Part shown: one piece after another, positions 26,215 to 49,320 of the stretch | Position numbering within the stretch: the stretch's first letter is position 1 | Layout: each line of letters starts with the position of its first letter | Source of the DNA: Candidatus Helarchaeota archaeon | GTDB taxonomy: Archaea; Asgardarchaeota; Lokiarchaeia; Helarchaeales; RDOG01 | DNA length: 64,000 nucleotides | Assembly (NCBI GenBank): GCA_019058315.1 | Contig: JAHPZH010000004.1 | Coordinates: 192,001-256,000 of the forward strand | Direction of reading: 5' to 3' | The notes under the pieces: generated by a model | Databases searched by the model: none | Seen by the model: the letters and a program-made list of their open reading frames with translations, nothing else | Told to the model about the DNA's origin: nothing | Translations under genes and position numbers: made by a program

Positions 26215-27060
26215 TTATGTCGTTATTTTATATTGGTCTAATTTTGATTTCGGTATTTTTAAAATTTCAAACAGTGGACCTAATTTTTTTATATTTCCTT
26301 CATATCTTTTTGTTTTTTTACCTTTAATTTCGATAATTAAATCTAATTCTTTTAATTTTGTGATAATATCATTAAACATTTTTGCGCTTAGGGCTGGGGC
26401 TTTTGTTGATAATGTAATTAATTCGCTTTTAGGATTCAATAAGATTAACTCTAGAACTGCAAAAATATCTTGATTTTTTAAAAATATAATAGATTCATGA
26501 TATTCAGGATTAATTTTAGATGCAAAATACCAAATTTTTAGATTAACTTTACTTTTTTTGATGTAATCGAAGTCTTCTAACATTTTCAAGTGATAAGCAG
26601 CTTGTTGAGGAGTTATATTTAATTGGTTTTGAATTTCTTTTAAAGTAGTTCCCGGAAAATTTGAAATGTAAACAGCAATTTTTTTTCTTTTATCGCTCTC
26701 AAGAATATTATCATCTGTAATTATAGTTTTTTTTGCTATGTAATTTTTCGTAATTAATTGATAAATAGCTTGACTAATTTCATATGCATTAAGTTTTAAT
26801 TTATTAACTGACAACCAATACAATTCTTGAATGTTTATAGAACCTTTTTTCATTAATTTTTCTGCGAATTTTAATATTGATGCTTCAGTGGATGAAATTT
26901 TTTCTTTATTCTTATCAAATTTCTCTTTTTTCTCCTCTTTGGTTTCAACTTTCTTATCCTTTTTTATTTCTTCTTTCTTATCTTCTTTTTTCTTTTTATC
27001 TTCTGGTATTGAGGGTTTTTGAAAAGGTATATATCTTGGAGCTCTTCTAGGTCGTTCCAT
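26215..27060 (-). CDS. Multi winged-helix (ArsR/MarR-like) protein with R/P-rich leader and K/E/D linker
   Basis: LESDKRKKIAVYISNFPG...EIQNQL...YHLKMLEDFDYI HTH, plus flanking wHTH-like units; leader MERPRRAPRYIPFQKPSIPEDKKK; SD GTGA. Confidence 0.8.
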   Translation of the reverse strand: MERPRRAPRYIPFQKPSIPEDKKKKEDKKEEIKKDKKVETKEEKKEKFDKNKEKISSTEASILKFAEKLMKKGSINIQELYWLSVNKLKLNAYEISQAIYQLITKNYIAKKTIITDDNILESDKRKKIAVYISNFPGTTLKEIQNQLNITPQQAAYHLKMLEDFDYIKKSKVNLKIWYFASKINPEYHESIIFLKNQDIFAVLELILLNPKSELITLSTKAPALSAKMFNDIITKLKELDLIIEIKGKKTKRYEGNIKKLGPLFEILKIPKSKLDQYKITT

Positions 27061-27118
27061 TTTTTTTCATCACTAATTTTTTTTATTTTTAAATTTTTAA
27101 GTAATTTTTTATAATAAT

Positions 27119-30100
27119 TTAAAAATTATCGTCAATTTTTTCTAAAGTGTCTAAAATTTCTTTTCTTTTCTTAGGATCTAGACCGGCTAATTCCTCTAAT
27201 ATGTCTAGCTTTTCGGATTCGTTAGGAATGTCTAGGTTCATGATTCGAATTATTTCCTCCTTGGATAACATTGTAAATTCTTGTTTGAAAAAGTCCTTAA
27301 GAACTTCATCTTCAACATCGTGTATGGGTACAACTGTTCTTCCAACATCCGGTGTTCTTTTTACAACCTTTTTGGGTTTTCTTCTAGCTATTCCTAAAAT
27401 TATTGCAAATAAACCAACGGCTATTGATGCAAAGACAATTAAGATTAAAATTAAATTATCTCCTGCCCCTACTAGTGGTGGTAGAAAAAGTATACCTTCT
27501 GCTGCTGTAATTGGTGCTATAGCATAATATGAAAGATTTGTGGTAAACCATTCTAAGTAATTTCCAGTAGTATTTAATGTGGCATTTAATTCTATCCACT
27601 TTGTGATATTAAAATAGAATATCCTTAAATCAGTCTCACTAATATTAAGAGCTGATTCGTTATAGTATAATTTCATAGTTGCATTTAATAGTGCTGTTGG
27701 ATTCTGTAAAGTAAATCCAAAAATACCTAAAAAGTCTGGAAGAGAAGTTCCAGTTGGATTACTAGTATAATAACTCATATTTATATTGGTATCAATTGAG
27801 ACAAAAATTCGAAGTTCGCATACTATATTACCTTTAGAGTCTGTTAAGTATACTATATTTTCTTGACCTGCAATAAGTCCTTGTGGAGTGTTATTTGAAT
27901 TCTGTAGAACTGTAAATGTTATTGTCAAATTTTTTCTTAATCCTACTGAATCATTTACTGATATTCTTAATGCAATTAAACCATTTGGAAGATAGCTTGA
28001 GTTGATAAATCTAAAATTACCCCAATTATTTCCACTTGGATCTACAGATAATGTAAAATTGGTATTATTAATAGTGACCGTACTAATTAAGCTTCCCGTT
28101 CCATTTACAAATCCTTCAATTTGATAATTATTTCCTACTTGAATTGTATCATTAAACATTGGGGTAGTTATTTGTATTGTAGGATTGATATTGTCAATAT
28201 AGAACCATCGAGTAGTTAAAGTATTCAATCCCGTAGAATCAGTAACATTTACTAAAATTGAAATAATACCGTCTACGATTATAGTGTTATTTCTAAATTC
28301 ATAAGCACCAGAAGGTGTTCCAGAAGGATCCGTGAAGATTGTGAATCTTGAATCATTAATTAGAACTGATGTAATATTAGACCCAGTACCGTCTACATTA
28401 CCACTAACTGATATTATATTCCCCGTATCAAAATCTCCATTTGAAGCTGGATCTGTAATTATTACAGTTGGGGCAGTATTGTCAATATAAAACCAACGGT
28501 TATTTGTTGTAGTTAAGCCAATAGAATCGGTTACATTAACTAGGACTGATATTAAGCCATCTGTAACAAATGTATTATTTCTAAATTCAAAAACTCCTGA
28601 AATAGAACCTGCGGGGTTGATAAAAAGAGTAAATCTTGAATCGTTAATCATTACTGATATAATATTTGATGCTGTTCCATTTGCAAAGCCAGTAATTGTA
28701 ATTGTATTTCCAGAATCTATTTGACCGTTTGAAATTGGATCTGTAATCGAAATATTTGGTGGAGAATTATCAACTCTAAACCATCTTGTAGTTGAGATTG
28801 TCAAGTTTGCACTATCTGTAATATTGACTTCGATTGAGATTACACCGTCTGAGACATATGAATTATTTGTGAATGTGTAGAAACCAGAAGGGCTTCCCGT
28901 TGGATCGCCTACAAGATTAAATCTAGAATCGTTTATCATAACAGATTGAATATTAGAACCCGTCCCATCTACCCAACCACTTACTAATATAGTGTTACCA
29001 GTAACTACGAGCCCATTTGCAGCTGGATTAATTATTGAAATAGTAGGTAGAGTATTATCAATAATAAACCATCTAACCATGCTATCTATAAGCCCTCCGG
29101 TATTATTAAGGGTCACATTAACTGCTATTATGCCATCCGGGATAAAGCTGTTATTTTCAAAGCCATAATTACCAAATCCAGTTCCAGAAGGGTCGATGGT
29201 AAGAATAAAACGGCTATCATTGATCCAAATAGTATCTATATTAACCCCACCACCATCAGCAGTACCGTTTATTGTTATATTGGTACCTGTGTCAATATCA
29301 CTATTTGCGGTTGGGTGATCTATGGTTACACTTGGACCAATAATATACGTAAACCACCAGATTATAGAATTCGTTAAATTAGCGGAATCGGTTACATTTG
29401 CTTCGACTGATACAGTTCCTAAATTAATGAAACTATTATTAGTAAAGATATAAGGTCCTGAAGCTGTTCCTGCCGGATCTGTAGTCAATATAAACCTTGA
29501 ATCATTAATTTGAACTGAAAGGATGTTAGATCCTGTTCCATCAACTGTTCCCTCAATAGTAACAGAAGATCCACTATCCGTTGTTCCATTTGGAAAAGGG
29601 TTAGTTATGGCAATTGTCGGATTTGTATTATCGAGATTAAACCACCTTGATAATGAAGTTGTTAAACTAGCAGTATCTGTGACATTAACAGTAATTGAAA
29701 TGATGCCATCTGGAATATATGTATTGTTATTAAATGCATAGTTTCCTGAAGGAGAACCTGTCGGATCAACTACAATAGTAAATCTGGAATCATTAATCAT
29801 TAATGATAGGATGTTAGACCCGGTACCATCTGCAGTCCCATTTACCCATATGTCAACTCCTGTATCAACATCGCCATCCGAAGCAGGATCAGCAATTGAA
29901 ATCATAGGATAAGTGTTATCAATATCAAACCATCTTGTTGCAAAATCTGTTAGATTTGCACTGTCTGTTACGTTGACTTCAACTGCTATATTACCATCTG
30001 GAATATAGGAATTGTTATTAAATGCATAGCTTCCTGATGGGGAGCCTGATGGATCAATGAAGATTGTAAATCGGGAGTCATTAATCATTACGGAAAGAAT

Positions 30101-33100
30101 ATTTGAACCAGTCCCATCAGTTGTTCCATTTATCCAGATAATCGCACCTGTATCCATGTCTCCATCAGAAGTTGGATCTGTTATTGAAATAGTGGGATCA
30201 GTATTGTCAATATCAAACCATCGAGTAGTAGAAGTTGTTAATCCTGCCGTATCGGTGACATTAACTAATACTCCAATATTTCCATCAGCAAGAAAAGTGT
30301 TATTGCGAAATTCATAAGCTCCAGAAGGAGTTCCTGATGGATCAGTGAAAATAGTAAATCGTGAATCATTAATCATGACTGATACTATATTAGAACCGGT
30401 ACCATCTGTGTTACCACTTACTGATATTATAGCTCCGGTATCAATATCTCCATCAGATGTGGGATCTGTAATTGTAATTGTAGGATTGGTGTTGTCTATA
30501 TCAAACCATCTTGTAGTAGATGTGGTCAAACCTGCAGAATCGGTTACATTAACTAAAATTGCTATATTTCCATCAGGAATTAATGTGTTATTTCTAAATT
30601 GATATGCCCCTGAGGGAGTTCCAGAAGGATTTATGAAAATAGTAAATCTAGAATCATTAATCATAACTGATACAATATTAGTACCAGTTCCATTTACATT
30701 GCCGCTTATTGAAATAATGGTTCCTGTATCTATATCACCATCTGATGCGGGATCTGTTATTGAAATAGTCGGATAGGTGTTATCTATATCAAACCATCTT
30801 GTAGTAGAAACGGTCAAGCCTGCAGAATCTGTCACATTAACAAGAACTCCGATATTTCCGTCTGGTATGAATGTGTTATTTCTGAATTCATAGGCTCCAG
30901 AAGGAGTACCCGAAGGATCCGTGAAAATAGTGAATCGAGTATCATTAATCATGACTGATACTATATTAGATCCAGTTCCATTGGCATTACCGCTGACTGA
31001 TATTATTATACCAGTATCAATAACTCCATCAGAAGCAGGATCCGTGATTGAAATGGTTGGATAGGTGTTATCTATATCAAACCAGCGAGTTATTGATATC
31101 GTTAGAGGTGCGGAATTAGTCACATTAACCTCGATAGCAACATTTCCATCTGGGATGTATGTGTTGTTTCGAAATTCATACGGTCCTGAGAGAGAACCAG
31201 AGGGATCTGTAAAAATAGTAAATCTAGAATCATTTATCATGACTGATATTATGTTTGAACCAGTTCCATCCGCATTACCGCTTATTGATATTATGGCTCC
31301 TGAATCTACATCTCCATTAGAAGCAGGATCTGTAATTGTAATGGTTGGATAGGTATTGTCTATATTAAACCATCGGGTTGTAGAAGTGGTTAAACCAGCA
31401 GAATCAGTAACATTTACTAGAACTCCAATATTTCCATCTGGAATGAATGTATTATTTCTAAATTCATAAGCCCCAGAAGGAGTTCCAGAAGGATCTGTGA
31501 AAATAGTGAATCGAGAATCATTAATCATAACTGATAAGATATTAGATCCGGTCCCATCAGCATTACCGCTTACTGAAACTATGGCTCCTGAATCTACAGC
31601 TCCATCGGAAGCAGGATCCGTGATTGAAATGGTTGGGTAAGTATTGTCAATGTCAAACCAGCGAATAGCAGAAGTGGTTAAACTGGCGGAATCAGTTACA
31701 TTTACCAAAATTGCAATATTTCCATCGGGAATAAATGAATTGTTTCTAAATTCATATGCACCAGAAGGAGTCCCCGAAGGATCCGTGAAAATAGTAAATC
31801 GTGAATCATTTATCATTACAGAGGCAATATTAGATCCAGTTCCATCAGCATTACCGCTTATGGATATTATGGTTCCCGTATCTATATCTCCATCAGATGC
31901 AGGATCGATAATTGAAATGGTTGGATAAGTATTATCAATATCAAACCAGCGCGTTGTAGAAGTGGTTAAACCCGCAGAATCTGTAACATTAACAAGAACC
32001 CCAATATTTCCGTCTGGAATGAATGTGTTATTTCTAAATTGATAAGCCCCAGAAGGAGTCCCCGAAGGATCCGTGAAAATAGTAAATCGAGAATCATTTA
32101 TCATTACAGAGGCAATATTAGATCCAGTTCCATCAGCGTTTCCACTTACGGATATAATTGCACCCACATCAACATCTCCATCTGATACAGGATCGGTAAT
32201 TGTAATTGTTGGAAGGGTGTTATCTATATCAAACCAGCGAGTCGTTGAAGTAGTTAAACCTGCAGAATCAGTTACATTTACAAGAATTCCGATATTTCCA
32301 TCAGGAATAAATGTGTTATTTCTAAATTCATATGCACCCGAAGGAGAACCCGAAGGATCTGTAAAGATAGTAAATCGTGAATCATTAATCATTACAGAAA
32401 CTATGTTAGAGCCAGTTCCATCTGCATTTCCACTGATTGAAATAATTGCTCCAGTATCAATATCTCCGTTCGATGCAGGATCGGTAATTGTAATTGTTGG
32501 AAGGGTGTTATCTACATCAAACCAGCGAGTCGTTGAAGTAGTTAGACCTGCAGAATCAGTTACATTTACAAGAATTCCGATATTTCCATCAGGAATAAAT
32601 GTGTTATTTCTAAATTCATATGCACCCGAAGGAGAACCCGAAGGATCTGTAAAGATAGTAAATCGTGAATCATTAATCATTACAGAAACTATGTTAGAGC
32701 CAGTTCCATCTGCATTTCCACTGATTGAAATAATTGCTCCAGTATCAATATCTCCGTTCGATGCAGGATCGGTAATTGTAATTGTTGGAAGGGTGTTATC
32801 TACATCAAACCAGCGAGTCGTTGAAGTAGTTAGACCTGCAGAATCAGTTACATTTACAAGAATTCCGATATTTCCATCAGGAATAAATGTGTTATTTCTA
32901 AATTCATATGCACCCGAAGGAGAACCCGAAGGATCTGTGAAGATAGTAAATCGTGAATCATTAATCATAACAGATACGATATTAGATCCGGTCCCATCGG
33001 CGTTACCACTTATGGATATTATGGTTCCTGTATCTATATCACCATCTGATGCAGGATCTGTTATTGAAATAGTCGGATAAGTATTATCTATATCAAACCA

Positions 33101-36100
33101 TCGAGTTGTAGAAGTGGTTAAACCTGCAGAATCAGTTACATTTACAAGAATTCCGATATTTCCATCAGGAATAAATGTGTTATTTCTAAATTCATATGCA
33201 CCCGAAGGAGAACCCGAAGGATCTGTGAAGATAGTAAATCGTGAATCATTAATCATAACAGATACGATATTAGATCCGGTCCCATCGGCGTTACCACTTA
33301 TGGATATTATGGTTCCTGTATCTATATCACCATCTGATGCAGGATCTGTTATTGAAATAGTCGGATAAGTATTATCTATATCAAACCATCGAGTTGTAGA
33401 AGTGGTTAAACCTGCAGAATCAGTTACATTCACCAAGATTCCAATATTACCATCTGGGATGAATGTGTTATTTCTAAATTCATAAGCTCCCGAGGGAGTC
33501 CCTGAAGGATCAGTGAAAATGGTGAACCGAGAATCATTAATCATAACAGAAGCAATATTAGAGCCAGTTCCATCAGCATTTCCACTTACGGAAATAATTG
33601 CACCCGTATCTATATCCCCATCTGATGAAGGATCAGTAATTGAAATTGTAGGATAGGTATTATCTATATCAGCCCATCGTGTGGTAGAAGTTGTCAAGCT
33701 TGCAGTATCGGTCACATTTACCATGATAGCAATATTACCGTCTGGTATAAATGTATTATTTCTAAATTCATAAGCCCCAGAAGGAGTTCCCGAAGGATCT
33801 GTGAAAATGGTGAACCGTGAATCATTAATCATTACTGATACAATATTAGATCCGGTCCCATCTGCATTGCCACTTATAGATATTATAGCTCCTGTATCAA
33901 CATCTCCATCTGAAGCAGGATCGGTAATTGTAATGGTTGGATATGTGTTGTCTATGTCAAACCAGCGCGTAGTAGGTGTAGTTAAACCAGCAGAGTCAGT
34001 TATATTAACTTTAATACCTATATTTCCATCTGGAATGTACGAATTGTTATTAAATGCATAGCTGCCTGATGGGGAACCTGATGGATCAATGAAGATTGTA
34101 AATCGGGAATCATTAATCAAAACAGATATAATATTAGAACCAGTGCCATCCACTGTCCCATTAATCCAAATAATGGCTCCTGTGTCAATGTCTCCATCAG
34201 AAGCAGGATCATTTATAGTGATAGTTGGGTAGATATTATCGACATCAAACCAGCGTGTAGCAGAAGATGTCAAACTAGCAGAATCTGTCACATTAACTTC
34301 GATAGCAATATTTCCTTCAGTAATATAAGAATTATTATTAAATGCGAAGCTTCCTGATGGAGAACCTGAGGGATCTGTGAATATCGTAAATCTAGAATCA
34401 TTAATCAAAACAGATACAATATTGGAGCCTGTACCATCCACTGTCCCGTTAATCCAGATAATAGTTCCTGTGTCAACATCTCCATTAGATGCGGGATCGT
34501 TAATTAAAATTGAAGGATTTGTATTATCTAGATTGAGCCAGCGTATAGCAGCAGATGTTAAACTAGCAGAATCCGTAATATTAACTTCGATTGAGATAAT
34601 TCCATCTGCTACATAAGAATTATTATTAAATGCGTAGTTTCCGGAAGGAGATCCAGATGGATCTATGATAAGTGTGAATCTGGAATCGTTAATCATCACA
34701 GAAGTAATATTTGAACCTGTTCCATCTACTGTTCCGTTTATCCAGATATCAGTGCCTGTAACTAAATCTCCATTTGAAGCAGGAACAGTAATTGAAATTG
34801 TGGGATATGTATTATCAATATCAAACCAACGAGTAGTTGAGACGGTCAAGTTAGCAGTATCTGTAATATTTACCTCAACCGCTATATTTCCATCTGGAAT
34901 GTAAGAATTATTATTGAACGTATAAATTCCGGAAGCAGATCCTGAAGGATCAACTGCTATAGTAAACCTCGAGTCATTTATCATAACTGATTGAATATTA
35001 GAACCAGTTCCATTTACAAATCCACTAATCGAAATAGTAGCTCCAGTATCTATATCGCCATCTGAAGTTGGATCCGTTATTGAGATTGTTGGATATGTAT
35101 TATCAATAATAAACCATCGAATTCTGTAATCTGAAAGGCCTCCTGAATTATTTAAGGTTATAGTAATAGCAACACGACCATCAGGAATAAAACTAATATT
35201 TTGAAATCCATAAACTCCGGATGGACTTCCAGAAGGATTAACTGTCAAAATAAATCGACTATCATTAATCCAAACTTGATCGATATTAGTCCCACCACCA
35301 TCAGCTGTTCCATTTATTGTAATATCAATTCCTGTATCTATAGCACTATCTGGAGAGGGATGATCAACGGTTACACTAGGCCCAATAATATATGTAAACC
35401 ATCGGGCTATAGAACCAGTTAATCCCACCGAATCGGTAACATTTACTTTAACCGCAACATTTCCAAGGGTAATAAAGCTATTATTACTAAAAGTAAAGGG
35501 ACCTGAAGAGCTTCCTACAGGATTTGTTGTTAAAGTAAATCTGGAATCATTTATTTGAACTGAGAAAATATTAGTTCCTGTTCCATCAACCCATCCATCG
35601 ACAGTAACACTACCCCCAGTATCGGTTGTACCATTTGGAAAGGGATGAGTTATAACAATAGTAGGATTTGTATTATCTAATATAAACCATCGAATCGCAG
35701 AAGTGGTTAAATAAGCAGAATCCGTGACATTAACCTCAATTGCAATAGTCCCATCTGTGATTAAGGTGTTATTATTAAATGCATAATTTCCTGATGGACT
35801 CCCTGATGGATCAGTGAAAATAGTGAATCGGGAATCATTAATCATTACAGACGAAATATCGGAACCTGTACCATCAGCTGTTCCATTTATCCATATAATG
35901 GCTCCTGTATCTAAATCTCCATTCGACGCTGGATCGGCAATTGAAATAGTAGGATAAGTATTGTCAATATCAAACCATCGTGTAGTAGAAGTAGTTAAGC
36001 CAGCAGTATCAGTAACATTTACGAGAACTCCTATATTTCCATCAGCAAGGTAAGTGTTATTTCTGAATTCATAAGCACCAGAAGGGGATCCTGAAGGATC

Positions 36101-42100: not shown

Positions 42101-45100
42101 TGTGTTATTTCTAAATTCATAAGCTCCAGAAGGAGATCCTGAAGGATCTGTAAAAATTGTAAATCTAGAATCATTAATCAAAACAGATACGATATTAGAA
42201 CCAGTGCCATCGGCATTTCCACTGATTGAAATAATAGTACCTGTATCAATATCTCCATCAGATGCAGGATCTGTAATTGTTATGGTTGGGTATGTATTGT
42301 CAATATCAAACCATCTAGTTGCAGAGGTTGTCAAGCTTGCAGAATCAGTCACATTCACTAGGATTGCAACATTTCCGTCCGGAATAAATGTGTTATTTCT
42401 AAATTCATATGCACCAGAAGGAGTCCCTGATGGATCTGTAAAAATTGTAAAACGAGAATCATTTATCATTACTGATACAATGTTAGAACCTGTTCCATCC
42501 ACATTACCGCCAATTGAGATGGTGGTCCCAGTATCTATATCACCGTCCGATGCCGGATCTGTAATTGAAATGGTAGGATAGGTATTGTCTATATCAAACC
42601 ATCTTGTGGTAGAAGTTGTCAAGCTAGCGGAATCGGTTACATTAACTAGGATGGCAATATTACCGTCTGGGATGAATGTATTATTTCTAAATTCATAAGC
42701 TCCAGAGGGACTGCCCGAAGGATCAGTAAAGATAGTAAATCTAGAATCATTAATCATAACAGAAACTATGTTAGAGCCAGTTCCATCTGCATTACCACTG
42801 ATTGAAATTATCACCCCAGTATCAATATCTCCATCAGAAGCTGGATCTGTGATTGAAATGGTAGGATAGGTATTGTCTATATCAAACCATCGAGTAGTAG
42901 AAGCAGTTAGACTAGCTGAATCCGTCACATTGACGAGAATTCCAATATTTCCGTCCGGAATGAATGTGTTATTTCTAAATTCATAAGCTCCAGAGGGACT
43001 GCCCGAAGGATCAGTAAAGATAGTAAATCTAGAATCATTAATCATAACAGAAACTATGTTAGAGCCAGTTCCATCTGCATTACCACTGATTGAAATTATC
43101 ACCCCAGTATCAATATCTCCATCAGAAGCTGGATCTGTGATTGAAATGGTAGGATAGGTATTGTCTATATCAAACCATCGAGTAGTAGAAGCAGTTAGAC
43201 TAGCTGAATCCGTCACATTGACGAGAATTCCAATATTTCCGTCCGGAATGAATGTGTTATTTCTAAATTCATAAGCTCCAGAGGGACTGCCCGAAGGATC
43301 AGTAAAGATAGTAAATCTAGAATCATTGATCATAACAGAAACAATATTAGATCCCGTGCCATCTGCATTTCCGCTTATTGAAATAATAGCTCCAGTATCA
43401 ATATCTCCGTCTGAAGCTGGATCGGTAATTGAAATGGTTGGATAAGTATTGTCTATATCAAACCATCGAGTCGTTAATGTGGTTAAGCCTGCAGAATCAG
43501 TTACATTAACAAGAACTCCAATATTTCCGTCCGGTATGAATGTGTTATTTCTAAATTCATAAGCTCCAGAAGGAGATCCCGAAGGATCTGTAAAAATTGT
43601 AAAACGGGAATCGTTGATCATGACTGATACGATATTGGAACCAGTACCATCAGCATTTCCACTAATTGAAATAATGGTCCCAGTATCAATATCTCCATCA
43701 GAAGCAGGATCTGTTATTGTTATTGTTGGATATGTATTATCTATATCAAACCATCGTGTTGTTGATGTGGTTAAACCCGCAGAATCCGTCACATTTACTA
43801 GAACTGCAATATTACCGTCTGGTATAAATGTGTTATTCCTGAATTCATAAGCTCCAGAAGGAGATCCCGAAGGATCTGTAAAAATTGTAAAACGAGAATC
43901 ATTTATCATTACTGATAAAATATTAGATCCAGTACCATCGGCGTTTCCACTAATTGAGATAATAACACCAGTATCTATATCACCGTCTGATGCGGGATCT
44001 GTTATTGTTATTGTAGGATCTGTATTATCTATATCAAACCAGCGTGAAGCGGTTGTTGTTAAGCTCGCTTGGTCAGTTACATTAACTTGAATTGCCACAT
44101 TTCCATCGGGGATATATGTATTATTTCTAAATTCATAAGCTCCAGAAGGAGATCCCGAAGGATCTGTAAAAATTGTAAAACGGGAATCGTTGATCATGAC
44201 TGATACGATATTGGAACCAGTACCATCAGCATTTCCACTTATTGATATAATAGCTCCAGTATCTATATCACCATTTGAAGCTGGATCAGTTATTGTTAAG
44301 GACGGAAGTGTATTATCTATATCAAACCATCGAGTAGCGGATGTTGTTAATCCGGCTGTATCTGTTACGTTCACTAGAATTGCGACATTCCCATCAGGAA
44401 TAAAAGTATTATTTCGGAATTCATATGCTCCTGAAGGAGTTCCTGAAGGATCTGTAAAAATTGTAAAACGAGAATCATTTATCATTACTGATACAATATT
44501 TGAACCTGTTCCATCAGCGTTGCCGCTTACGGAAATTATAGCCCCCGTATCTATATCTCCATCAGATGCGGGATCTGTTATTGATATCGTAGGTGGTGTA
44601 TTATCTATATAGAACCAGCGAATAATAGAAGAAGTTAAACCTGATGAATCTGTAATATTTATTTTAATTGCAATATATCCGTCTGCAATATAAGATGAAT
44701 TTCTAAATTCATAATTTCCGGAAAGGCTTCCTGAGGGATCCAGAAATATATTAAAATTAGAATTATTAATCTGAATAGATGTGATTTCAGTTCCGGTTCC
44801 ATTGGCAAATCCACTGATTGAAATTATAACCCCCGTATCAATGGAACCATTAGATGCGGGATCTGTAACTGTAATAGTAGGATTAATCGAATCCATAATT
44901 ACCCAAATCATGAAAGACCCATTATTTCTTGCATAATCTTGTGCAACGACTGTTATATTGTTCCAACCTTCAACCAAGTTAATATTTTGAACAGTGGATG
45001 TACCTGTATATTGAATTGATCCATTTCTAATGACTTCATAAACTTTAATTCCACTTTCAGAATCGTAACTACTTGTCCAATTTACTTGGACAGAGGCTGC

Positions 45101-47464
45101 AGATGTATTCAATTTATCAACAGGACTATCGATGATGACTGTTGGATTTGTATTATCTGAGCTTACATTCCAATAAATAATTTCAGATCGACTTTTATAA
45201 CCTAACTTTGAAGAAGTAATGTTAATTTCATAAATATTATCTAAAGTAAAATCCGAATAGTTAAGTTGGATATAATACGTCTCATTGGTTGCATGCCATA
45301 GGAAATTTCCATCTTGACCTGTCATATTACTATTATAAGTTACATTTGCATTTGTAATATTAAGACCAGTTTTCAAATCGATATATTGTACTATTATAGT
45401 GAGATTAAATGGCTCAAAATTACTCGTTATTGTAGTGCTAGGTTCCAATCGAATTAAACTTGTATTATAAATCAGTGAAAAAGTATTATTTATAGACGCA
45501 TTGTTATACCATGCTTTAGAAGCATTAATTACAACTTTATATGAACCATTTACAAAGTTATTTGTGGATAATGTATAATTATAATATCCGGAACTTAGAC
45601 TTTCCGTGAGGTTATCTTGCAAGACAAGAGATGAATCAGTCTCATTAAATATTTGAATTGTAAGGTTTGCTTCTGTTATTGGTGAATTAGTATGAGTATC
45701 ATTGTAAAACACAGTGACATTCAAATCGACTCCAATTAAATGGACGCCACTAACCTCACCTAAGTCATCAAAGCTTAGATTTGTGGAATTAACTACAAAT
45801 AAGTAAGTTTGATTTATTGCTGAATAAGATTCATTAGTCCAAATAATTTGAACAGTATAATTTCCTGTCTCTGTTGAAGCAGGAACGGTTACATTGAATA
45901 AAACGAAATCTACGAGTGTAGAACTATTAATTGTTGTCCAATCGGAAGTAACATCGTCATTAGTAGTATTATATATTGATAAATTCATTATACCATTAGA
46001 AAATCCACTAACAGAAGTATTTATTTGTATATTTTCTCCATGAATATAAGCTCGAGAATTATATGATGATGTAACTGCAGATTGGTTTAAAGATATTAAT
46101 ATTGTTTGTGTTGGACTCCTAAAAGTAAATTTCCAGAGACCTTCGGTTAAAATATCGTTGGTGTTATTTGATAAATATACAATGTTGTTCTGTTCAATTA
46201 TACCATTGGTAACATTTACATCTGAAGAATTTAATGCTAAAATCATATTCCAACTTGATAATGGTTTGGAAAGGGTAACCGAAAAATTACTTAAAGACTC
46301 TCCATATGAAGCTGTTGGAGCGGATACTGAAAAATTAGTTTTCCAATAACTCCACAACTCTCCAAGAGAAATATTATGTTTTATATTAGTAGTTTGTGTC
46401 AAATTAACATTTATAGATGTCCATGTCAGATTACATGAAAAACTAGAATTTGTGGATATTGTTATTGATTTGTTTTCTCCGTCATTATCTGCAAAATTGA
46501 AATTATAGGTAGTACTATTAACATCATGAACGGTACTATCTATCGTCATGTTCATATCGATATCTTCTGGGTTCATATTTGTAAGAGTGTTATTCGAAGA
46601 ATCGATATAAACTGTTTTTAGTTTTAATGACATATCTTGTGTATTTATTTGACTCCAGACTCCAACATACTGATATAGATAACCCTCATCAACGTTATCT
46701 CCTCCATTAAAAGTTGTATCCCAATTATAAAACCAATGAACACCAGTGGTTCCTGGGATACTATCTACTAAATTAGTTGCGTTAATCACAAAATAATAAA
46801 ATCCTGCTGTCAAATTAACGTTAATATTACTAAACACATTCCATGTAGTAGTTCCAAATTGGCCAGTCCTCGAACTATTCCATAATAGTGCTTGTGGTGC
46901 ATTTCCAACTCCTGTAGAATTCCAAATCTCAATGTCATAATATCCTGAAAAAAGTATCAGGTAACCATATAAGCTAATATCAGTGATTCTAGAATCTCTC
47001 GAGAGGATAAAAGACATTGCGTAAGGAGAAGAACTACTACTAAGAATATATTTAAGAGTACTAAAATTTTGTTCAACATCCCTCCAAGTAGATTCTGCAG
47101 AAATATTCTGTATATTAATTTCATAATTGGTACGGTTATAGTCTGTGGGAACAGTTACATCGAATTGACGTTCATTGTCACCAGCTGGAGATTCAGGACC
47201 TGTTGCGTTTATTACATTACTTACTAACCAATTTAAATAAGTTTTATTTGAATAACTTGTCTGTGTGACATTTAGACCATTTCGTGTACCATTTGCATAA
47301 TCCTTAGTAATCTCATTAAAGGTTTTTGATTTAAAATTTAATTTTTCCAATAAATTCAATGGAATTGGAGATTCTGAGTTATATTGATTATAATTTAAAA
47401 TCGCCAAATAAGGTGAAGTTAGTATGATAATAAAAATAATGATTTTAATAGGAATTTTTCGCAA
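27119..47464 (-). CDS. Giant single-pass cell-surface glycoprotein (6781 aa), paralog of 20904..25598, with about 59 Ig-like repeats and a helical cytoplasmic tail
   Basis: Uninterrupted 20.3-kb ORF; signal peptide; shared head (KYILSSSSSPYAMSF..SRDSRITDIS); TM LILILIVFASIAVGLFAIILGIA followed by RRK; about 88-aa tail. Confidence 0.93.
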   Translation of the reverse strand: MRKIPIKIIIFIIILTSPYLAILNYNQYNSESPIPLNLLEKLNFKSKTFNEITKDYANGTRNGLNVTQTSYSNKTYLNWLVSNVINATGPESPAGDNERQFDVTVPTDYNRTNYEINIQNISAESTWRDVEQNFSTLKYILSSSSSPYAMSFILSRDSRITDISLYGYLILFSGYYDIEIWNSTGVGNAPQALLWNSSRTGQFGTTTWNVFSNINVNLTAGFYYFVINATNLVDSIPGTTGVHWFYNWDTTFNGGDNVDEGYLYQYVGVWSQINTQDMSLKLKTVYIDSSNNTLTNMNPEDIDMNMTIDSTVHDVNSTTYNFNFADNDGENKSITISTNSSFSCNLTWTSINVNLTQTTNIKHNISLGELWSYWKTNFSVSAPTASYGESLSNFSVTLSKPLSSWNMILALNSSDVNVTNGIIEQNNIVYLSNNTNDILTEGLWKFTFRSPTQTILISLNQSAVTSSYNSRAYIHGENIQINTSVSGFSNGIMNLSIYNTTNDDVTSDWTTINSSTLVDFVLFNVTVPASTETGNYTVQIIWTNESYSAINQTYLFVVNSTNLSFDDLGEVSGVHLIGVDLNVTVFYNDTHTNSPITEANLTIQIFNETDSSLVLQDNLTESLSSGYYNYTLSTNNFVNGSYKVVINASKAWYNNASINNTFSLIYNTSLIRLEPSTTITSNFEPFNLTIIVQYIDLKTGLNITNANVTYNSNMTGQDGNFLWHATNETYYIQLNYSDFTLDNIYEINITSSKLGYKSRSEIIYWNVSSDNTNPTVIIDSPVDKLNTSAASVQVNWTSSYDSESGIKVYEVIRNGSIQYTGTSTVQNINLVEGWNNITVVAQDYARNNGSFMIWVIMDSINPTITVTDPASNGSIDTGVIISISGFANGTGTEITSIQINNSNFNIFLDPSGSLSGNYEFRNSSYIADGYIAIKINITDSSGLTSSIIRWFYIDNTPPTISITDPASDGDIDTGAIISVSGNADGTGSNIVSVMINDSRFTIFTDPSGTPSGAYEFRNNTFIPDGNVAILVNVTDTAGLTTSATRWFDIDNTLPSLTITDPASNGDIDTGAIISISGNADGTGSNIVSVMINDSRFTIFTDPSGSPSGAYEFRNNTYIPDGNVAIQVNVTDQASLTTTASRWFDIDNTDPTITITDPASDGDIDTGVIISISGNADGTGSNILSVMINDSRFTIFTDPSGSPSGAYEFRNNTFIPDGNIAVLVNVTDSAGLTTSTTRWFDIDNTYPTITITDPASDGDIDTGTIISISGNADGTGSNIVSVMINDSRFTIFTDPSGSPSGAYEFRNNTFIPDGNIGVLVNVTDSAGLTTLTTRWFDIDNTYPTISITDPASDGDIDTGAIISISGNADGTGSNIVSVMINDSRFTIFTDPSGSPSGAYEFRNNTFIPDGNIGILVNVTDSASLTASTTRWFDIDNTYPTISITDPASDGDIDTGVIISISGNADGTGSNIVSVMINDSRFTIFTDPSGSPSGAYEFRNNTFIPDGNIGILVNVTDSASLTASTTRWFDIDNTYPTISITDPASDGDIDTGVIISISGNADGTGSNIVSVMINDSRFTIFTDPSGSPSGAYEFRNNTFIPDGNIAILVNVTDSASLTTSTTRWFDIDNTYPTISITDPASDGDIDTGTTISIGGNVDGTGSNIVSVMINDSRFTIFTDPSGTPSGAYEFRNNTFIPDGNVAILVNVTDSASLTTSATRWFDIDNTYPTITITDPASDGDIDTGTIISISGNADGTGSNIVSVLINDSRFTIFTDPSGSPSGAYEFRNNTFIPDGNIGILVNVTDSASLTTSTTRWFDIDNTDPTISITDPASDGDIDTGTIISIGGNVDGTGSNIVSVMINDSRFTIFIDPSGTPSGVYEFRNNTFIPDGNVAVLVNVTDSASLTTSTTRWFDIDNTYPTISITDPASDGDIDTGTIISISGNADGTGSNIASVMINDSRFTIFTDPSGTPSGAYEFRNNTFIPDGNIAILVNVTDSAGLTTSATRWFDIDNTNPTITITDPASDGDIDTGVIISISGNADGTGSNIVSVMINDSRFTIFTDPSGSPSGAYEFRNNTFIPDGNVAVLVNVTDSASLTTSTTRWFDIDNTYPTISITDPASDGDIDTGTIISISGNTDGTGSNIASVMINDSRFTIFTDPSGTPSGAYEFRNNTLILDGNIAILVNVTDSAGLTTSATRWFDIDNTNPTITITDPASDGDVDTGVIISISGNADGTGSNIVSVMINDSRFTIFTDPSGSPSGAYEFRNNTFIPDGNIGILVNVTDSASLTTSTTRWFDIDNTDPTISITDPASDGDIDTGTIISIGGNADGTGSNIASVMINESRFTIFTDPSGSPSGAYEFRNNTFIPDGNIAVLVNVTDSAGLTTSTTRWFDIDNIYPTISITDPTSDGDIDTGAIISISGNADGTGSNIVSVMINDSRFTIFTDPSGSPSGAYEFRNNTFIPDGNIGILVNVTDSAAQTTSTTRWFDIDNTDPTITITDPASDGDIDTGAIISISGNADGTGSNIVSVMINDSRFTIFTDPSGSPSGAYEFRNNTFISDGNIGVLVNITDSAGLITSTTRWFDVDNIYPTISIIDPTSDGDVDTGAIISISGNADGTGSNIVSVMINDSRFTIFTDPSGTPSGAYEFRNNTFIPDGNIAILVNVTDSASQTTSATRWFDIDNTYPTISITDPASDGDIDTGIIISVSGNADGTGTNIVSVMINDSRFTIFTDPSGTPSGAYEFRNNTFLADGNIGILVNITDSAGLTTSTTRWFDIDNTYPTISITDPTADGVTDTGTIISISGNVDGTGSNIISVMINDSRFTIFTDPSGTPSGAYEFRNNTFIADGNIGVLVNVTDSAGLTTSATRWFDIDNTYPTISITDPTSDGDIDTGVIISISGNADGTGSNIASVMINDSRFTIFTNPSGTPSGAYEFRNNTFLADGNIGVLVNVTDSAGLTTSTTRWFDIDNTYPTISIIDPASNGDIDTGAIISVSGNSDGTGSNIASVMINDSRFTIFTDPSGSPSGAYEFRNNTFIPDGNIGVLVNVTDSAGLTTSTTRWFDIDNTLPTISITDPASDGDIDTGVIISISGNADGTGSNIASVMINDSRFTIFTDPSGTPSGAYEFRNNTFIPDGNIGVLVNVTDSAGLTTSTTRWFDIDNTLPTISITDPASDGDIDTGVIISISGNADGTGSNIASVMINDSRFTIFTDPSGSPSGAYEFRNNTFIPDGNIGVLVNVTDSAGLTTSATRWFDIDNTLPTISITDPASDGDIDTGVIISISGNADGTGSNIVSVMINDSRFTIFTDPSGSPSGAYEFRNNSYIPDGNIGVLVNVTDSASLTASTTRWFDIDNTYPTISITDPASDGDIDTGAIISISGNADGTGSNIVSVMINDSRFTIFTDPSGTPSGAYEFRNNTFIPDGNIGVLVNVTDSAGLTTSTSRWFDIDNTYPTISIIDPASDGDIDTGNIISISGNADGTGSNIVSVLINDSRFTIFTDPSGTPSGAYEFRNNTYLADGNVGILVNVTDSAGLTTSNTRWFDIDNTYPTISITDPASDGDIDNGAIISVGGNADGTGSNIASVMINDTRFTIFTDPSGTPSGAYEFRNNTFIPDGNIGVLVNVTDSAGLTTSTTRWFDIDNTYPTITITDPASDGDIDTGAIIFISGNADGTGSNIISVMINDSRFTIFTDPSGSPSGAYEFRNNTFIPDGNVAVLVNVTDSASLTTSTTRWFDVDNTYPTISITDPVSDGDVDTGAIISISGNADGTGSNIVSVMINDSRFTILTDPSGSPSGAYEFRNNTYLADGNIGVLVNVTDTAGLTTSTTRWFDIDNTYPTISIADPASNGDLDTGAIIWINGTADGTGSDISSVMINDSRFTIFTDPSGSPSGNYAFNNNTLITDGTIAIEVNVTDSAYLTTSAIRWFILDNTNPTIVITHPFPNGTTDTGGSVTVDGWVDGTGTNIFSVQINDSRFTLTTNPVGSSSGPFTFSNNSFITLGNVAVKVNVTDSVGLTGSIARWFTYIIGPSVTVDHPSPDSAIDTGIDITINGTADGGGTNIDQVWINDSRFILTVNPSGSPSGVYGFQNISFIPDGRVAITITLNNSGGLSDYRIRWFIIDNTYPTISITDPTSDGDIDTGATISISGFVNGTGSNIQSVMINDSRFTIAVDPSGSASGIYTFNNNSYIPDGNIAVEVNITDTANLTVSTTRWFDIDNTYPTISITVPASNGDLVTGTDIWINGTVDGTGSNITSVMINDSRFTLIIDPSGSPSGNYAFNNNSYVADGIISIEVNITDSASLTSAAIRWLNLDNTNPSILINDPASNGDVDTGTIIWINGTVDGTGSNIVSVLINDSRFTIFTDPSGSPSGSFAFNNNSYITEGNIAIEVNVTDSASLTSSATRWFDVDNIYPTITINDPASDGDIDTGAIIWINGTVDGTGSNIISVLINDSRFTIFIDPSGSPSGSYAFNNNSYIPDGNIGIKVNITDSAGLTTPTTRWFDIDNTYPTITITDPASDGDVDTGAIISISGNADGTGSNIVSVMINDSRFTIFTDPSGTPSGAYEFRNNTFIPDGNIAIMVNVTDTASLTTSTTRWADIDNTYPTISITDPSSDGDIDTGAIISVSGNADGTGSNIASVMINDSRFTIFTDPSGTPSGAYEFRNNTFIPDGNIGILVNVTDSAGLTTSTTRWFDIDNTYPTISITDPASDGDIDTGTIISISGNADGTGSNIVSVMINDSRFTIFTDPSGSPSGAYEFRNNTFIPDGNIGILVNVTDSAGLTTSTTRWFDIDNTYPTISITDPASDGDIDTGTIISISGNADGTGSNIVSVMINDSRFTIFTDPSGSPSGAYEFRNNTFIPDGNIGILVNVTDSAGLTTSTTRWFDVDNTLPTITITDPASNGDIDTGAIISISGNADGTGSNIVSVMINDSRFTIFTDPSGSPSGAYEFRNNTFIPDGNIGILVNVTDSAGLTTSTTRWFDVDNTLPTITITDPASNGDIDTGAIISISGNADGTGSNIVSVMINDSRFTIFTDPSGSPSGAYEFRNNTFIPDGNIGILVNVTDSAGLTTSTTRWFDIDNTLPTITITDPVSDGDVDVGAIISVSGNADGTGSNIASVMINDSRFTIFTDPSGTPSGAYQFRNNTFIPDGNIGVLVNVTDSAGLTTSTTRWFDIDNTYPTISIIDPASDGDIDTGTIISISGNADGTGSNIASVMINDSRFTIFTDPSGTPSGAYEFRNNSFIPDGNIAILVNVTDSASLTTSAIRWFDIDNTYPTISITDPASDGAVDSGAIVSVSGNADGTGSNILSVMINDSRFTIFTDPSGTPSGAYEFRNNTFIPDGNIGVLVNVTDSAGLTTSTTRWFNIDNTYPTITITDPASNGDVDSGAIISISGNADGTGSNIISVMINDSRFTIFTDPSGSLSGPYEFRNNTYIPDGNVAIEVNVTNSAPLTISITRWFDIDNTYPTISITDPASDGVIDTGIIISVSGNANGTGSNIVSVMINDTRFTIFTDPSGTPSGAYEFRNNTFIPDGNIGVLVNVTDSAGLTVSTTRWFDIDNTYPTISITDPASDGDIDTGTIISISGNVNGTGTNIVSVMINDSRFTIFINPSGTPSGAYQFRNNTLIPDGNIAILVNVTDSAGLTTSTTRWFDIDNTNPTITITDPTSDGDIDTGAIISVSGNTDGTGSNIVSVMINDSRFTIFTDPSGTPSGAYEFRNNTFLADGNIGVLVNVTDTAGLTTSTTRWFDIDNTDPTISITDPTSDGDMDTGAIIWINGTTDGTGSNILSVMINDSRFTIFIDPSGSPSGSYAFNNNSYIPDGNIAVEVNVTDSANLTDFATRWFDIDNTYPMISIADPASDGDVDTGVDIWVNGTADGTGSNILSLMINDSRFTIVVDPTGSPSGNYAFNNNTYIPDGIISITVNVTDTASLTTSLSRWFNLDNTNPTIAITNPFPNGTTDSGSSVTIEGTVDGTGSNILSVQINDSRFILTTDPAGTASGPYIFTNNSFINLGTVSVEANVTDSANLTNSIIWWFTYIIGPSVTIDHPTANSDIDTGTNITINGTADGGGVNIDTIWINDSRFILTIDPSGTGFGNYGFENNSFIPDGIIAVNVTLNNTGGLIDSMVRWFIIDNTLPTISIINPAANGLVVTGNTILVSGWVDGTGSNIQSVMINDSRFNLVGDPTGSPSGFYTFTNNSYVSDGVISIEVNITDSANLTISTTRWFRVDNSPPNISITDPISNGQIDSGNTITITGFANGTASNIISVMINDSRFTLFINPAGSISGVFEFRNNTFVTDGLISVLVNVTDSIGLTTTNNRWFYIDNTAPTVIITDPASNGDFDTGNIISVSGNVDGTGSNITSVLINDSRFTIFTDPSGTPSGAYEFRNNTIIVDGIISILVNVTDSTGLNTLTTRWFYIDNINPTIQITTPMFNDTIQVGNNYQIEGFVNGTGSLISTVTINNTNFTLSVDPSGNNWGNFRFINSSYLPNGLIALRISVNDSVGLRKNLTITFTVLQNSNNTPQGLIAGQENIVYLTDSKGNIVCELRIFVSIDTNINMSYYTSNPTGTSLPDFLGIFGFTLQNPTALLNATMKLYYNESALNISETDLRIFYFNITKWIELNATLNTTGNYLEWFTTNLSYYAIAPITAAEGILFLPPLVGAGDNLILILIVFASIAVGLFAIILGIARRKPKKVVKRTPDVGRTVVPIHDVEDEVLKDFFKQEFTMLSKEEIIRIMNLDIPNESEKLDILEELAGLDPKKRKEILDTLEKIDDNF
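27905..44893 (-). repeat. About 59 tandem ~288-bp (96-aa) Ig-like coding repeats
   Basis: Span of about 17.0 kb divided by 288 bp. Same unit as in the short paralog, with several variant units. Confidence 0.93.
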
Positions 47465-47636
47465 AATTCATCCGACCTAAAAAGTAAATTATATCAAGTT
47501 ATATTACATCATTGAATTTAAATTATAAAACAAGAAAAATATAAAAATATTTATTTAATATTGAAAATCTAATATATCAAAATTAAGTAATTTTTAAAAA
47601 TAAGAAACAATAAATAAATTTTAAGAAATTAAAGAG

Positions 47637-49010
47637 TTATTTAAGAGCTTCTCTCAAACTAGCTAATTCTTTGAGATTTCTCATCCTCTCAACTTCTTCT
47701 AAATATTGCTTAGCTTCTGTCATTTCACCAATTTCTACAGATAGCTTTGAAGCTTGATCAAACAACATTGCAGCTTCATCGTATTTTCCACCAATTTCCA
47801 TTGTTTTTGCTTTATTAATAATCTCATTTCGTTCTTGTCTTAATCGTGGAATTCGTGAACGCATTTCCTGTGCGGTTTGACTAAAGAGCTGGGCACGTTC
47901 TGCAAATTCTTGAGCGACTATATTTTCGTATAATTGAGTAGAAAGTCCCGAAATACTAGATAATAATTGTGCAGCAGTACCAAAATCATCTCTTTTTACT
48001 GAATCATCCAGTTGAGAAAAAAGAATCTTCCTTTCTTCACGTATCCTTTTCCTGTTTTCAATTTCTGCACTAAGTTGCTCCGTTAGCTTTTTTTTAGGGA
48101 ATTGCTGAATTCTATCTAGAAAAGTTTTTCTACTATCTTCCGTAGAAACTAATAAATCTTCCAAAATTAAATTTTTATTTTCATTAGATAATGTCTTAAT
48201 TTCTGACATTTGATCCCATAGCATTCTACGTTCTGCGGATTGAGCTACTTGTTCTATATCTATAGCTATAAATAATCCTTTGTCATTTAGACCAAAAATT
48301 GCCTTTACAATCTTATCTCGGGGCATTTTTGTTTTTTTAATAACTTCCTCAATGAGTCTAGCTGTAAAAAAGAAACCTCTTTCTTTAGAAAGGTCTTTCG
48401 CGACTTTCATTATTGAATTTTCTGCTGAATTAAGTTTTGCCTGTTTTATAATTTCAGGATCCATTGGTAAAATTATGGGCTTAATTAAAAACAAATTGAA
48501 GTGTGTATCAACCAAATCTTTGGCTGGAGCAAAATCACTTACTTTTCCCGAGAACTCATCAATATATCGTTTAAATTTTCTATTAAAATCTTCTGCAAAT
48601 GTAGTAAGAGATTGCTTGATAGGATCGGAAGGATCGGATTCAAGCATTACTGCGACCATTACATCTTCCGTATCTGCAATACAGATTTGGAATTGTTCCA
48701 TTGGATATGTATAAAGTACACAAGTGGTTCCTGCCATTTCTTCGGTTATATCGGCACTTTTTGGTTTTTTCTTCTCGTCTTTCTTCTTTTTCTTTTCGTC
48801 TTCTCTTCTTTCCTTTTCTTCTTCCTTTTTCCTCTTCTCGTCTTCCTTTTTTCTTAATTTTTCTTCTTTTTTATTGTCTTTCTTTTTATCGACTTTCTCT
48901 TTTTTATCCTCTTTTTTGTCGTCTTTTTTGTCATCTTTTTTTTTCTTGTCTTCTGGAATCGTGGGTTTTTGGAAAGGTATAAACCTTGGAGTTCTTCGGG
49001 GTCGTGCCAT
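47637..49010 (-). CDS. Cytoplasmic multidomain protein: R/P leader, K/E/D linker, C-half longin-like, winged helix, helical motif, TPR-like C-terminus
   Basis: MARPRRTPRFIPFQKPTIPEDKKK; FQICIADTEDVMVAVMLESDPS...L..FAEDF..KF...F.GKVSDF; GKYDEAAMLFDQASKLSVEIG. SD AGGAG. Confidence 0.8.
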   Translation of the reverse strand: MARPRRTPRFIPFQKPTIPEDKKKKDDKKDDKKEDKKEKVDKKKDNKKEEKLRKKEDEKRKKEEEKERREDEKKKKKDEKKKPKSADITEEMAGTTCVLYTYPMEQFQICIADTEDVMVAVMLESDPSDPIKQSLTTFAEDFNRKFKRYIDEFSGKVSDFAPAKDLVDTHFNLFLIKPIILPMDPEIIKQAKLNSAENSIMKVAKDLSKERGFFFTARLIEEVIKKTKMPRDKIVKAIFGLNDKGLFIAIDIEQVAQSAERRMLWDQMSEIKTLSNENKNLILEDLLVSTEDSRKTFLDRIQQFPKKKLTEQLSAEIENRKRIREERKILFSQLDDSVKRDDFGTAAQLLSSISGLSTQLYENIVAQEFAERAQLFSQTAQEMRSRIPRLRQERNEIINKAKTMEIGGKYDEAAMLFDQASKLSVEIGEMTEAKQYLEEVERMRNLKELASLREALK

Positions 49011-49320
49011 TATTTCTCCTCATTTAAGTTTTTATTCAAAAATTTGGGTTGAAATTTCTAAAAGACACGTAAAATATTCTTTTTTACATTTACACATTTT
49101 ATTTATTTAAATATTTAGTTATAAACATTTAGTAAATTTTAATATTATATTGTTCATTTCATTTTGTAAATAAAAATGCAATTATCTTTTTATTATATTT
49201 TTTTTCAAATTGTTAATCATAAAATATTTACTTTATTAATGATTTCAAATACTTAGTTAATTAAAGAAATTATATTTATGGGATTAATAGATTTAATATT
49301 AATTTATTTTAGTGATTACT

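Follow-up and report, generated by a model that had tools for sequence, protein, structure and literature searches.

The 64,000-nucleotide window analysed here, taken from contig JAHPZH010000004.1 of a Candidatus Helarchaeota archaeon (assembly GCA_019058315.1; genome G000 in this analysis, 5.79 Mb, 30% GC), encodes two otherwise unrelated cytoplasmic proteins, termed A and B, that begin with closely similar proline- and arginine-rich peptides (the tag). Protein B appears to carry the second half of a longin domain whose first half forms the cytoplasmic tail of a surface protein, surf2, encoded in the same window. The explanation favoured here, judged moderately probable as a whole, is that the tag is a selected peptide native to B, that surf2 and B share a split longin domain, that the tag was copied once from B to A, and that it provides a common docking element for the two proteins.

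Both tagged open reading frames (ORFs) lie on the minus strand, with start codons at positions 27060 (A) and 49010 (B) and in-frame stops 3-4 codons 5′ of both ATGs. The translated sequences both open with M-x-RPRR-x-PR[FY]IPFQKP-x-IPEDKKKK, which is followed by a spacer rich in lysine, glutamate and aspartate (K/E/D) of ~35 amino acids (aa) in A and ~70 aa in B. A first-pass annotation, made from the DNA alone, had pointed to two such peptides on two different proteins, each ahead of a charged spacer, and both are present as described. A BLASTP alignment of A with B covers residues 1-19 only (79% identity, E 7e-09) and the remainder of the two proteins is unrelated. Among the 25 codons of the tag, 13 are identical between A and B, eight differ by synonymous changes and four by conservative replacements. 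The synonymous divergence (dS) is ~1.0 and the ratio of nonsynonymous to synonymous divergence (dN/dS) is 0.07 by the Nei-Gojobori method; together with the codon-level divergence, these values confirm the observation and argue against a recent copy. When B is compared with that of a 69%-identical relative, dN/dS is 0.02 for the tag and 0.13 for the body. The annotation's view that the peptide is conserved, and not the DNA, is thus borne out, as codons vary while residues stay; a dN/dS near 1, which it had named as the contrary outcome, was not seen.

The conserved core of the tag is P-x-[FY]-[IV]-P-F, at positions 8-13, and the basic flank is lineage-specific. Prolines are found at positions 4, 8, 12, 16 and 19 in this lineage, a spacing of 4-4-4-3. 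In an AlphaFold2 (AF2) model of the B monomer, built from an 11-sequence alignment with a mean predicted local distance difference test (pLDDT) score of 79, residues 1-48 are unplaced and have pLDDT values below 50, with no secondary structure before residue 35; the tag itself scores 30-40. The peptide is short, resides in a predicted disordered region, is conserved above its flanks and is under purifying selection, which are the marks of a short linear motif (SLiM). These properties fit a lineage-specific N-terminal SLiM, extended here to RPRRxPR[FY]IPFQKPxIPEDKKKK.

Occurrence of the tag is highly restricted. The 5.79-Mb genome contains the strict pattern RPRR.PR[FY]IPF in two places and no more. 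For the relaxed core P.[FY][IV]PF, eight occurrences are seen in ORFs of at least 100 aa, against ~2 by chance on a hand estimate from approximate residue frequencies, and among the matches other than the tags only one is near an N-terminus. A search of 5.8 billion word-indexed proteins with a 40-aa profile returned B orthologues, A and P0009 (an orthologue of A) only. When 1.84 billion cluster representatives were scanned exhaustively with HMMER, one match was obtained at E ≤ 0.001, a member of the B family, and no convincing match was found in the 34 other Lokiarchaeia genomes searched. It had been proposed in the first-pass annotation that the tag is a portable SLiM, to be searched for across this genome and other Asgards. 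The SLiM part of this proposal stands, in that the peptide is predicted to be disordered, is selected and is borne at the end of a charged spacer, but the portability does not. That the tag serves as a portable docking, localisation or degradation motif on many proteins of this genome and other Asgards is therefore highly unlikely, even though two otherwise unrelated proteins carry it under purifying selection.

Orthologues that are 40-70% identical to B nearly all begin with a version of the tag. The forms include MSRPRRTPRYIPFQKPTIPEDKKKK, MSRRKKPRY[IV]PF... and the degenerate MDRRRQPGKFVGF, as well as MSDEYQPQFIPF... and MHDEHEPEFVPF... in family f3, where the flank is acidic and the hydrophobic-proline core is kept. 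This distribution shows the tag to be, as far as sequence comparison reaches, native to protein family B of Helarchaeales. The picture differs for A. Tag and spacer are both missing from the remaining 13 A-family loci of the genome (40-44% identity for eight of these), and P0010, a 52%-identical A homologue in another metagenome-assembled genome (MAG), has no room for a tag. P0009 does carry the tag, as MSRRRTSRYVPFQKPSIPEEKKKK, shorter by one residue. In addition, the FQKPxIPE[DE]KKKK extension of A's tag is common only to B proteins of the same lineage. As the relatives of A lack the tag and spacer and the extension is shared only with own-lineage B, the tag and spacer must have been copied from B onto A. 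A single transfer, onto one A-family gene and before this genome and that of P0009 diverged, accounts for the confinement of the tag to B orthologues, A and P0009.

The possibility that the copy on A is a functionless passenger of locus rearrangement, with only the B copy functional, is rather unlikely. The tag of A does evolve rapidly (dN/dS 0.35, compared with 0.14 in the A body), and the orthologue P0009 has lost the proline at position 8 (P8) along with one residue. Rearrangement of the locus is also clear from comparison with other genomes, in which B follows surf2; here the two are ~22 kb apart and no longer adjacent. The counts behind the higher ratio are small, however (4 synonymous and 6 nonsynonymous differences, Sd and Nd), the strong constraint between the A and B tags at a dS of ~1.0 speaks for selection, and the core RY[IV]PFQKPSIPE is kept in both A orthologues. 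Function of the tag on A is nevertheless less certain than on B, given its rate and the loss of P8 in P0009.

The relationship between B and surf2 became apparent through P0014, a 740-aa paralogue with an intact C-terminal domain. Residues 617-662 of P0014 align to the surf2 cytoplasmic tail (E 4e-12) and residues 659-739 align to B residues 91-171 (E 1e-13); the two alignments adjoin and do not overlap. The intact domain, folded alone with 22 homologues, displays the order beta1-beta2-alpha1-beta3-beta4-beta5-alpha2 (AF2, pLDDT 78). Its best Foldseek matches in the PDB are AP sigma subunits, TRAPP Bet5/Trs23, Fuzzy, the Sec22b longin domain and the LAMTOR/Rag roadblocks, at E values of 6e-5 to 1e-3 (TMq, the TM-score for the query, 0.62 for Sec22b). 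No Pfam model matches the domain by sequence, and PDB sequence profiles likewise gave nothing useful; a feature search of the ESM Atlas returned 'Roadblock/LAMTOR2' at 0.87, which serves as a lead only. From the adjoining P0014 matches and the longin fold of the intact domain, the surf2 tail represents the predicted first half of a longin domain and B the second. By sequence alignment and structural modelling, the two thus show every sign of being one longin domain split over two chains. A direct hhalign comparison of the B alignment with the surf2 tail found nothing, as expected for different halves of a domain that are linked only via P0014.

A model of the complex between B and the 77-aa surf2 tail supports this relationship. 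The score is 0.73 and the best of three controls scores 0.01; 58 of 80 solved complexes and 2 of 110 mismatched pairs attain that mark, counts that apply only roughly because alignments made for this analysis were used. At least 91% of contacts are in common between runs and the partner has a pLDDT of at least 79. Strand 23-30 of the surf2 tail is predicted to pair with strand 117-124 of B, which supports the docking of B on the tail by completion of its longin fold. The confident interface in the model with full-length B includes no tag residue and is uninformative on the tag either way.

More than 40 full-length copies of the ~125-aa longin-fold domain are detected genome-wide by tblastn (e.g. 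C3:1063959-1064381, C5:675709-676119 and C11:272665-273066), many of them at the ends of 700-2100-aa proteins. Among the 24 copies with a detectable N-terminal half, surf2 is the only one that ends right after alpha1. B has a single-copy full-length match, and no gap separates its spacer from the half-domain; no scan was aimed at other proteins consisting of the C-terminal half only.

Three other Helarchaeales genomes (G003, G006 and G004) have a gene of the surf2 type, encoding the same tail, directly upstream of B. The stop codon of the first gene and the start codon of the second form the junctions TAATG, TAAAATG and TAGAATG (L008:1859-1863, L009:1350-1356 and L011 around 2715-2722), and a Shine-Dalgarno (SD)-like GGAGG/GAGGTG is present inside the tail coding region. 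These junctions, together with the SD-like motif, suggest that synthesis of the two longin halves is translationally coupled. Unsplit proteins of 1400-2100 aa are found in G002, in many other Lokiarchaeia and in this genome as well. In these proteins surface repeats are followed by a transmembrane (TM) helix and a juxtamembrane stretch of basic character, then by the intact domain and a B-like remainder; there is no tag. As the unsplit relatives lack it, the tag and its spacer arose at or after the split.

The junctions also bear on the idea that the tag acts in translation, as a nascent peptide or a 5′ coding element that tunes initiation or early elongation of a gene ancestrally coupled to surf2. 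The tag is always at the extreme N-terminus, and the B start overlaps or abuts the surf2 stop in three genomes, next to an SD-like motif. On the other hand, codon variation is seen at the conserved residues of the tag, and since the codons vary freely there, an RNA-sequence element is unlikely. Furthermore, A is not coupled in a similar manner, as a gap of 58 nt follows the stop codon of the giant gene upstream of it. An effect on translation is thus considered quite unlikely.

In the AF2 model of B, a helix is predicted within the spacer at residues 35-78 with modest confidence (pLDDT 48-70). The model is confident from residue 98 on, where a three-stranded sheet with helices comes first, a winged-helix-like domain and long helices follow, and a three-helix bundle closes the chain. 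No Pfam match was found for B, a Foldseek search of the PDB with the whole protein yielded nothing at E ≤ 0.001, and an ESM Atlas shape search returned unnamed Asgard clusters only. When superposed on MIT domains (VIA), the bundle at residues 385-457 gives Z 9.2 with a root-mean-square deviation (rmsd) of 1.4 over 63 residues for 2w2u_B, and Z 9.4 with an rmsd of 4.8 over 78 residues for 2crb. TPR and designed bundles score the same as MIT, so that Z values of 9.2-9.4 represent a helical background. Because the superposition on TPR and designed bundles is equal, the MIT likeness is a lead only. A weak profile match of B to the SKD1 MIT domain was also detected (E 0.19).

It is conceivable that the target of the tag is to be sought in A and B themselves, in cis or in trans, either as a ligand of the B bundle resembling MIT-interacting motif 2 (MIM2) or as a placeholder over the half-longin until the surf2 tail arrives, with the copy on A as a competitor. 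The superposition of B helices 385-457 on MIT domains, which include that of Sulfolobus Vps4 with a proline-rich ESCRT-III peptide (2w2u_B), would agree with such a role, as would the SKD1 profile match and the regular prolines of the tag. The MIM2 consensus is Φ-P-x-Φ-P-x-x-P-Φ-P, at the C-terminal end of an ESCRT-III protein. The tag does not match it, and distant orthologues retain P-x-[FY]-[IV]-P-F alone; moreover, the Z values do not rise above the helical-bundle background and are equalled by TPR. The tag is also not docked on B in cis in the AF2 model, and the B protein of G004 retains the C-terminal bundle without having a tag. An action confined to A and B is consequently rather unlikely.

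The Arg/Pro/aromatic cluster ahead of a Lys-rich stretch might instead constitute a basic arm for contact with nucleic acid or with the lipids of the membrane. In the f1 lineage the RPRRxPR sequence is accompanied by aromatic residues, winged-helix domains are predicted in both A and B, and B is predicted to be adjacent to the membrane on the surf2 tail. This role is distinctly improbable, however, as the basic flank is not conserved (the f3 forms are acidic and retain the hydrophobic-proline core), the spacer is a mixture of K/E/D and not purely basic, and the GRP core of an AT-hook is lacking.

Several known motifs were considered for the tag and rejected. An AT-hook consists of an R-G-R-P core with basic flanks, and in a twin-arginine translocation (Tat) signal RR precedes a hydrophobic h-region, which leads to a cleavage site. 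The tag has no GRP core and its f3 orthologues have acidic flanks. RR is present, but what follows is QKPSIPEDKKKK and the charged spacer, with no hydrophobic stretch. By eye, YxxΦ was rejected as B has F and not Y, and the PIP box, NPF, PY-NLS (nuclear localisation signal) and LIR (LC3-interacting region) motifs were rejected as well.

Protein A matches two Pfam winged-helix models, HTH_HVO_0163_N (PF24266, 34.7 bits, cut-off 31) and HTH_24 (PF13412, 24.6 bits, cut-off 21.9). On these matches its body qualifies as a winged-helix domain of the transcription-regulator type, with putative DNA binding. The A family comprises 14 loci in this genome. The cytoplasmic tail of the giant surface protein encoded between B and A, termed tail1, is a module found on at least nine large surface proteins of the genome, and an A-family gene adjoins all nine of the tail1 loci, in six cases directly downstream within 224 nt and in three directly upstream. 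Cassettes of a surface protein (TM helix and tail1) and an A-family gene are seen at C3:120256-121155, C3:124843-125771, C3:793453-794364, C5:81690-82752, C11:265276-266325 and elsewhere. Some A-family members are ~740 aa long and end in an intact longin domain, P0014 among them; the A and B worlds are linked in one chain by proteins of this type.

The proposed arrangement is as follows. A surf2-type protein ends, after its TM helix, in beta1-beta2-alpha1, and B appears to be the cytoplasmic portion of a surface receptor from which fission of the gene has separated it, supplying beta3-beta4-beta5-alpha2 and then the winged-helix-like domain and helical bundle. The tag, at the free end of a charged and partly helical spacer, was born in B at or after the split, and tag and spacer were later copied once to A, beside tail1 of the giant. 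The tag may then act as a docking peptide that brings surf2-bound B and A, the presumed partner of tail1, to one common site, for which, as suggested in the first-pass annotation, the two could compete. Shared docking of this kind would couple two surface proteins that have the same extracellular repeats. A stronger form of this proposal, in which the tag is a common handle that links the giant (via A) and surf2 (via B) to one cytoplasmic hub and the locus encodes a transmembrane adhesion or signalling complex, is possible but on the doubtful side.

Several observations weigh against the favoured explanation. No partner of the tag has been identified, and AF2 does not place it in the monomer model of B. 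It is dispensable in some lineages, being absent from the B protein of G004 and degenerate in that of G001 (GKFVGF). P0009 lacks the nearly invariant P8, and the tag of A evolves faster than the A body. The model of surf2 tail with B may pass in part through likeness to solved longin structures, and the role of A-family proteins as cytoplasmic partners of tail1 is inferred from gene adjacency only.

Comparison with known systems shows both likenesses and differences. As with eukaryotic-type SLiMs, such as ligands of SH3, WW and EVH1 domains, the tag comprises 6-20 residues, is predicted to be disordered, is conserved above its flanks and has a hydrophobic-proline core; like them, it has moved onto an unrelated protein. 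The ligand patterns RxxPxxP, PPxY, FPxΦP, PPxxF, NPF and YxxΦ are not satisfied across orthologues, as judged by eye. The tag differs further in being strictly N-terminal, in its confinement to two families of one archaeal order and in that no reader domain has been identified. MIM2 and the Vps4 MIT domain of Sulfolobus (PDB 2w2u) offer a proline-rich terminal peptide on a flexible linker and a domain on which the B bundle superposes, though not above the helical background; the tag is N-terminal, whereas MIM2 is C-terminal, and A and B do not belong to the ESCRT-III proteins. The spacer resembles ER/K single alpha-helices in that it is a K/E/D-rich stretch of variable length, predicted to be helical at 35-78 in B, which joins a terminal motif to a body. 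It is Lys/Asp-rich and not of the classic E4K4 type, and at its low pLDDT it may simply be disordered.

Longin and roadblock platforms (Ragulator LAMTOR1-5, AP sigma/mu-N, TRAPP Bet5/Trs23 and Sec22b) have the longin topology of the intact domain and a membrane position in common with the system described here. By analogy, an intact longin domain on the tail of a TM protein could serve as an assembly platform. The present system differs in that a giant surface protein of immunoglobulin (Ig)-like repeats either includes the domain or has been separated from it by the split, with winged-helix and helical modules after the domain; there is no evident GTPase partner, and one domain extends over two polypeptides. 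Gene fission, as in split inteins and split enzymes, provides a parallel in adjacent coupled genes, adjoining halves, unsplit homologues and predicted completion of a beta-sheet. Here, the break divides an adaptor domain, small and non-enzymatic, so that a membrane protein has one part and a soluble protein the other, the new N-terminus has acquired a conserved tag with spacer, and the halves are ~22 kb apart in this genome. Longin and roadblock domains are abundant in Asgards (PMC10933270). In the literature searched, which yielded surveys of Asgard longin and roadblock domains, no description was found of a fusion of a TM surface protein with a longin domain, of this split or of the tag.

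Coordinates of the features are listed in Table 1. Read 5′ to 3′ along the minus strand, B comes first, followed by the giant, A, a 119-aa AbrB/MazE-like ORF and surf2. The first-pass annotation had placed each tagged gene upstream of a surface-protein gene; this is correct for B, which is directly upstream of the giant, but A is downstream of the giant, and the 119-aa ORF intervenes before surf2. This ORF, of the SpoVT type, overlaps the surf2 start by 11 nt, an arrangement that is kept in a related MAG (L068). In the giant, a Pfam Big_7 match is below threshold (E 1.3e-4, 22.9 bits, cut-off 24.1).

Table 1. Features of the locus in the 64,000-nucleotide window (positions within the window)
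Feature	Position	Strand	Remarks
B, whole ORF, 457 aa	47637-49010	-	
B tag, codons 1-25, MARPRRTPRFIPFQKPTIPEDKKKK; core P8-x-F-I-P-F13	48936..49010	-	kept in B orthologues; dN/dS 0.02; pLDDT <50
B charged K/E/D spacer, ~residues 20-94	48729..48953	-	orthologue lengths differ widely in the alignment; AF2 helix 35-78
B predicted half-longin module beta3-beta4-beta5-alpha2, ~residues 95-180	48471..48728	-	alignment to P0014 659-739; confident modelled interface with surf2 tail
B remainder: winged-helix-like domain, long helices, C-terminal three-helix bundle 385-457 resembling MIT/TPR	47637..48470	-	AF2 model
Giant surface protein of 6781 aa, with an array of Ig-like repeats, a C-terminal TM helix and a helical cytoplasmic tail	27119..47464	-	
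tail1, the last ~75 aa of the giant, helical cytoplasmic module	27122-27346	-	
A, whole ORF, 281 aa	26215-27060	-	
A tag, codons 1-25, MERPRRAPRYIPFQKPSIPEDKKKK	26986..27060	-	also in orthologue P0009
A charged K/E/D spacer, ~residues 20-55	26896..27003	-	no counterpart in any A paralogue
A body: tandem winged-helix (Pfam HTH_HVO_0163_N, HTH_24)	26215..26895	-	
119-aa AbrB/MazE-like ORF, between A and surf2	25588..25947	-	Pfam MazE_antitoxin E 3.4e-5, just below cut-off
surf2, 1564-aa surface protein: Ig-like repeats, TM helix, 77-aa cytoplasmic tail	20904..25598	-	
surf2 cytoplasmic tail, 77 aa, predicted longin N-terminal half beta1-beta2-alpha1	20907-21137	-	
429-aa ORF (MSWKE..., PEPEE repeats), neighbour of B conserved in related genomes	49312..50601	+	no Pfam match

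An Ig-like repeat unit of ~95 aa (…DGTGSNI.SVMINDSRFTIF.DPSG.PSG.YEFRNNT…) is common to surf2 and the giant, and the cytoplasmic tails of the two differ. Like repeats with unlike tails suggest recombination between surface genes within the locus. In the contig of the closest relative (L067:12665-13518), B is followed by a fragment of an ISL3-type transposase and then by the contig end, which is consistent with an assembly that breaks at the repeat-rich giant gene.

The 429-aa ORF next to B starts with a small domain, continues in a long array of EIPSPEPEE-like repeats and has a conserved C-terminus. Its homologues adjoin B in two family-f3 genomes (L008 and L009). In L067 a 375-aa ORF holds the position of this ORF, a match in position only. 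The 429-aa protein is a candidate partner.

The longin domain is fused to surface proteins in many Lokiarchaeia and appears to be split between a tail and a soluble adaptor in Helarchaeales. Asgard longin and roadblock domains number in the dozens, with partners and roles that are mostly unknown, and one of them is seen here to be physically tied to cell-surface proteins, with the surf2 tail and B as a concrete and testable protein pair. The split-longin surface-protein system, which would explain the tag, is of more interest than the tag alone. It represents a natural example of a small adaptor domain that extends over two genes, where a conserved peptide came into being at the break point and later moved to a second adaptor family. 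Should the role of the tag prove only local, the locus would still provide a clean case of archaeal module shuffling. If the hub arrangement is true, it would resemble eukaryotic adaptor logic, a membrane-anchored longin platform with recruitment by a SLiM, in an archaeon. Were the tag to bring the two adaptors together at one site, the SLiM wiring of membrane complexes that is a hallmark of eukaryotes would be present in their archaeal relatives.

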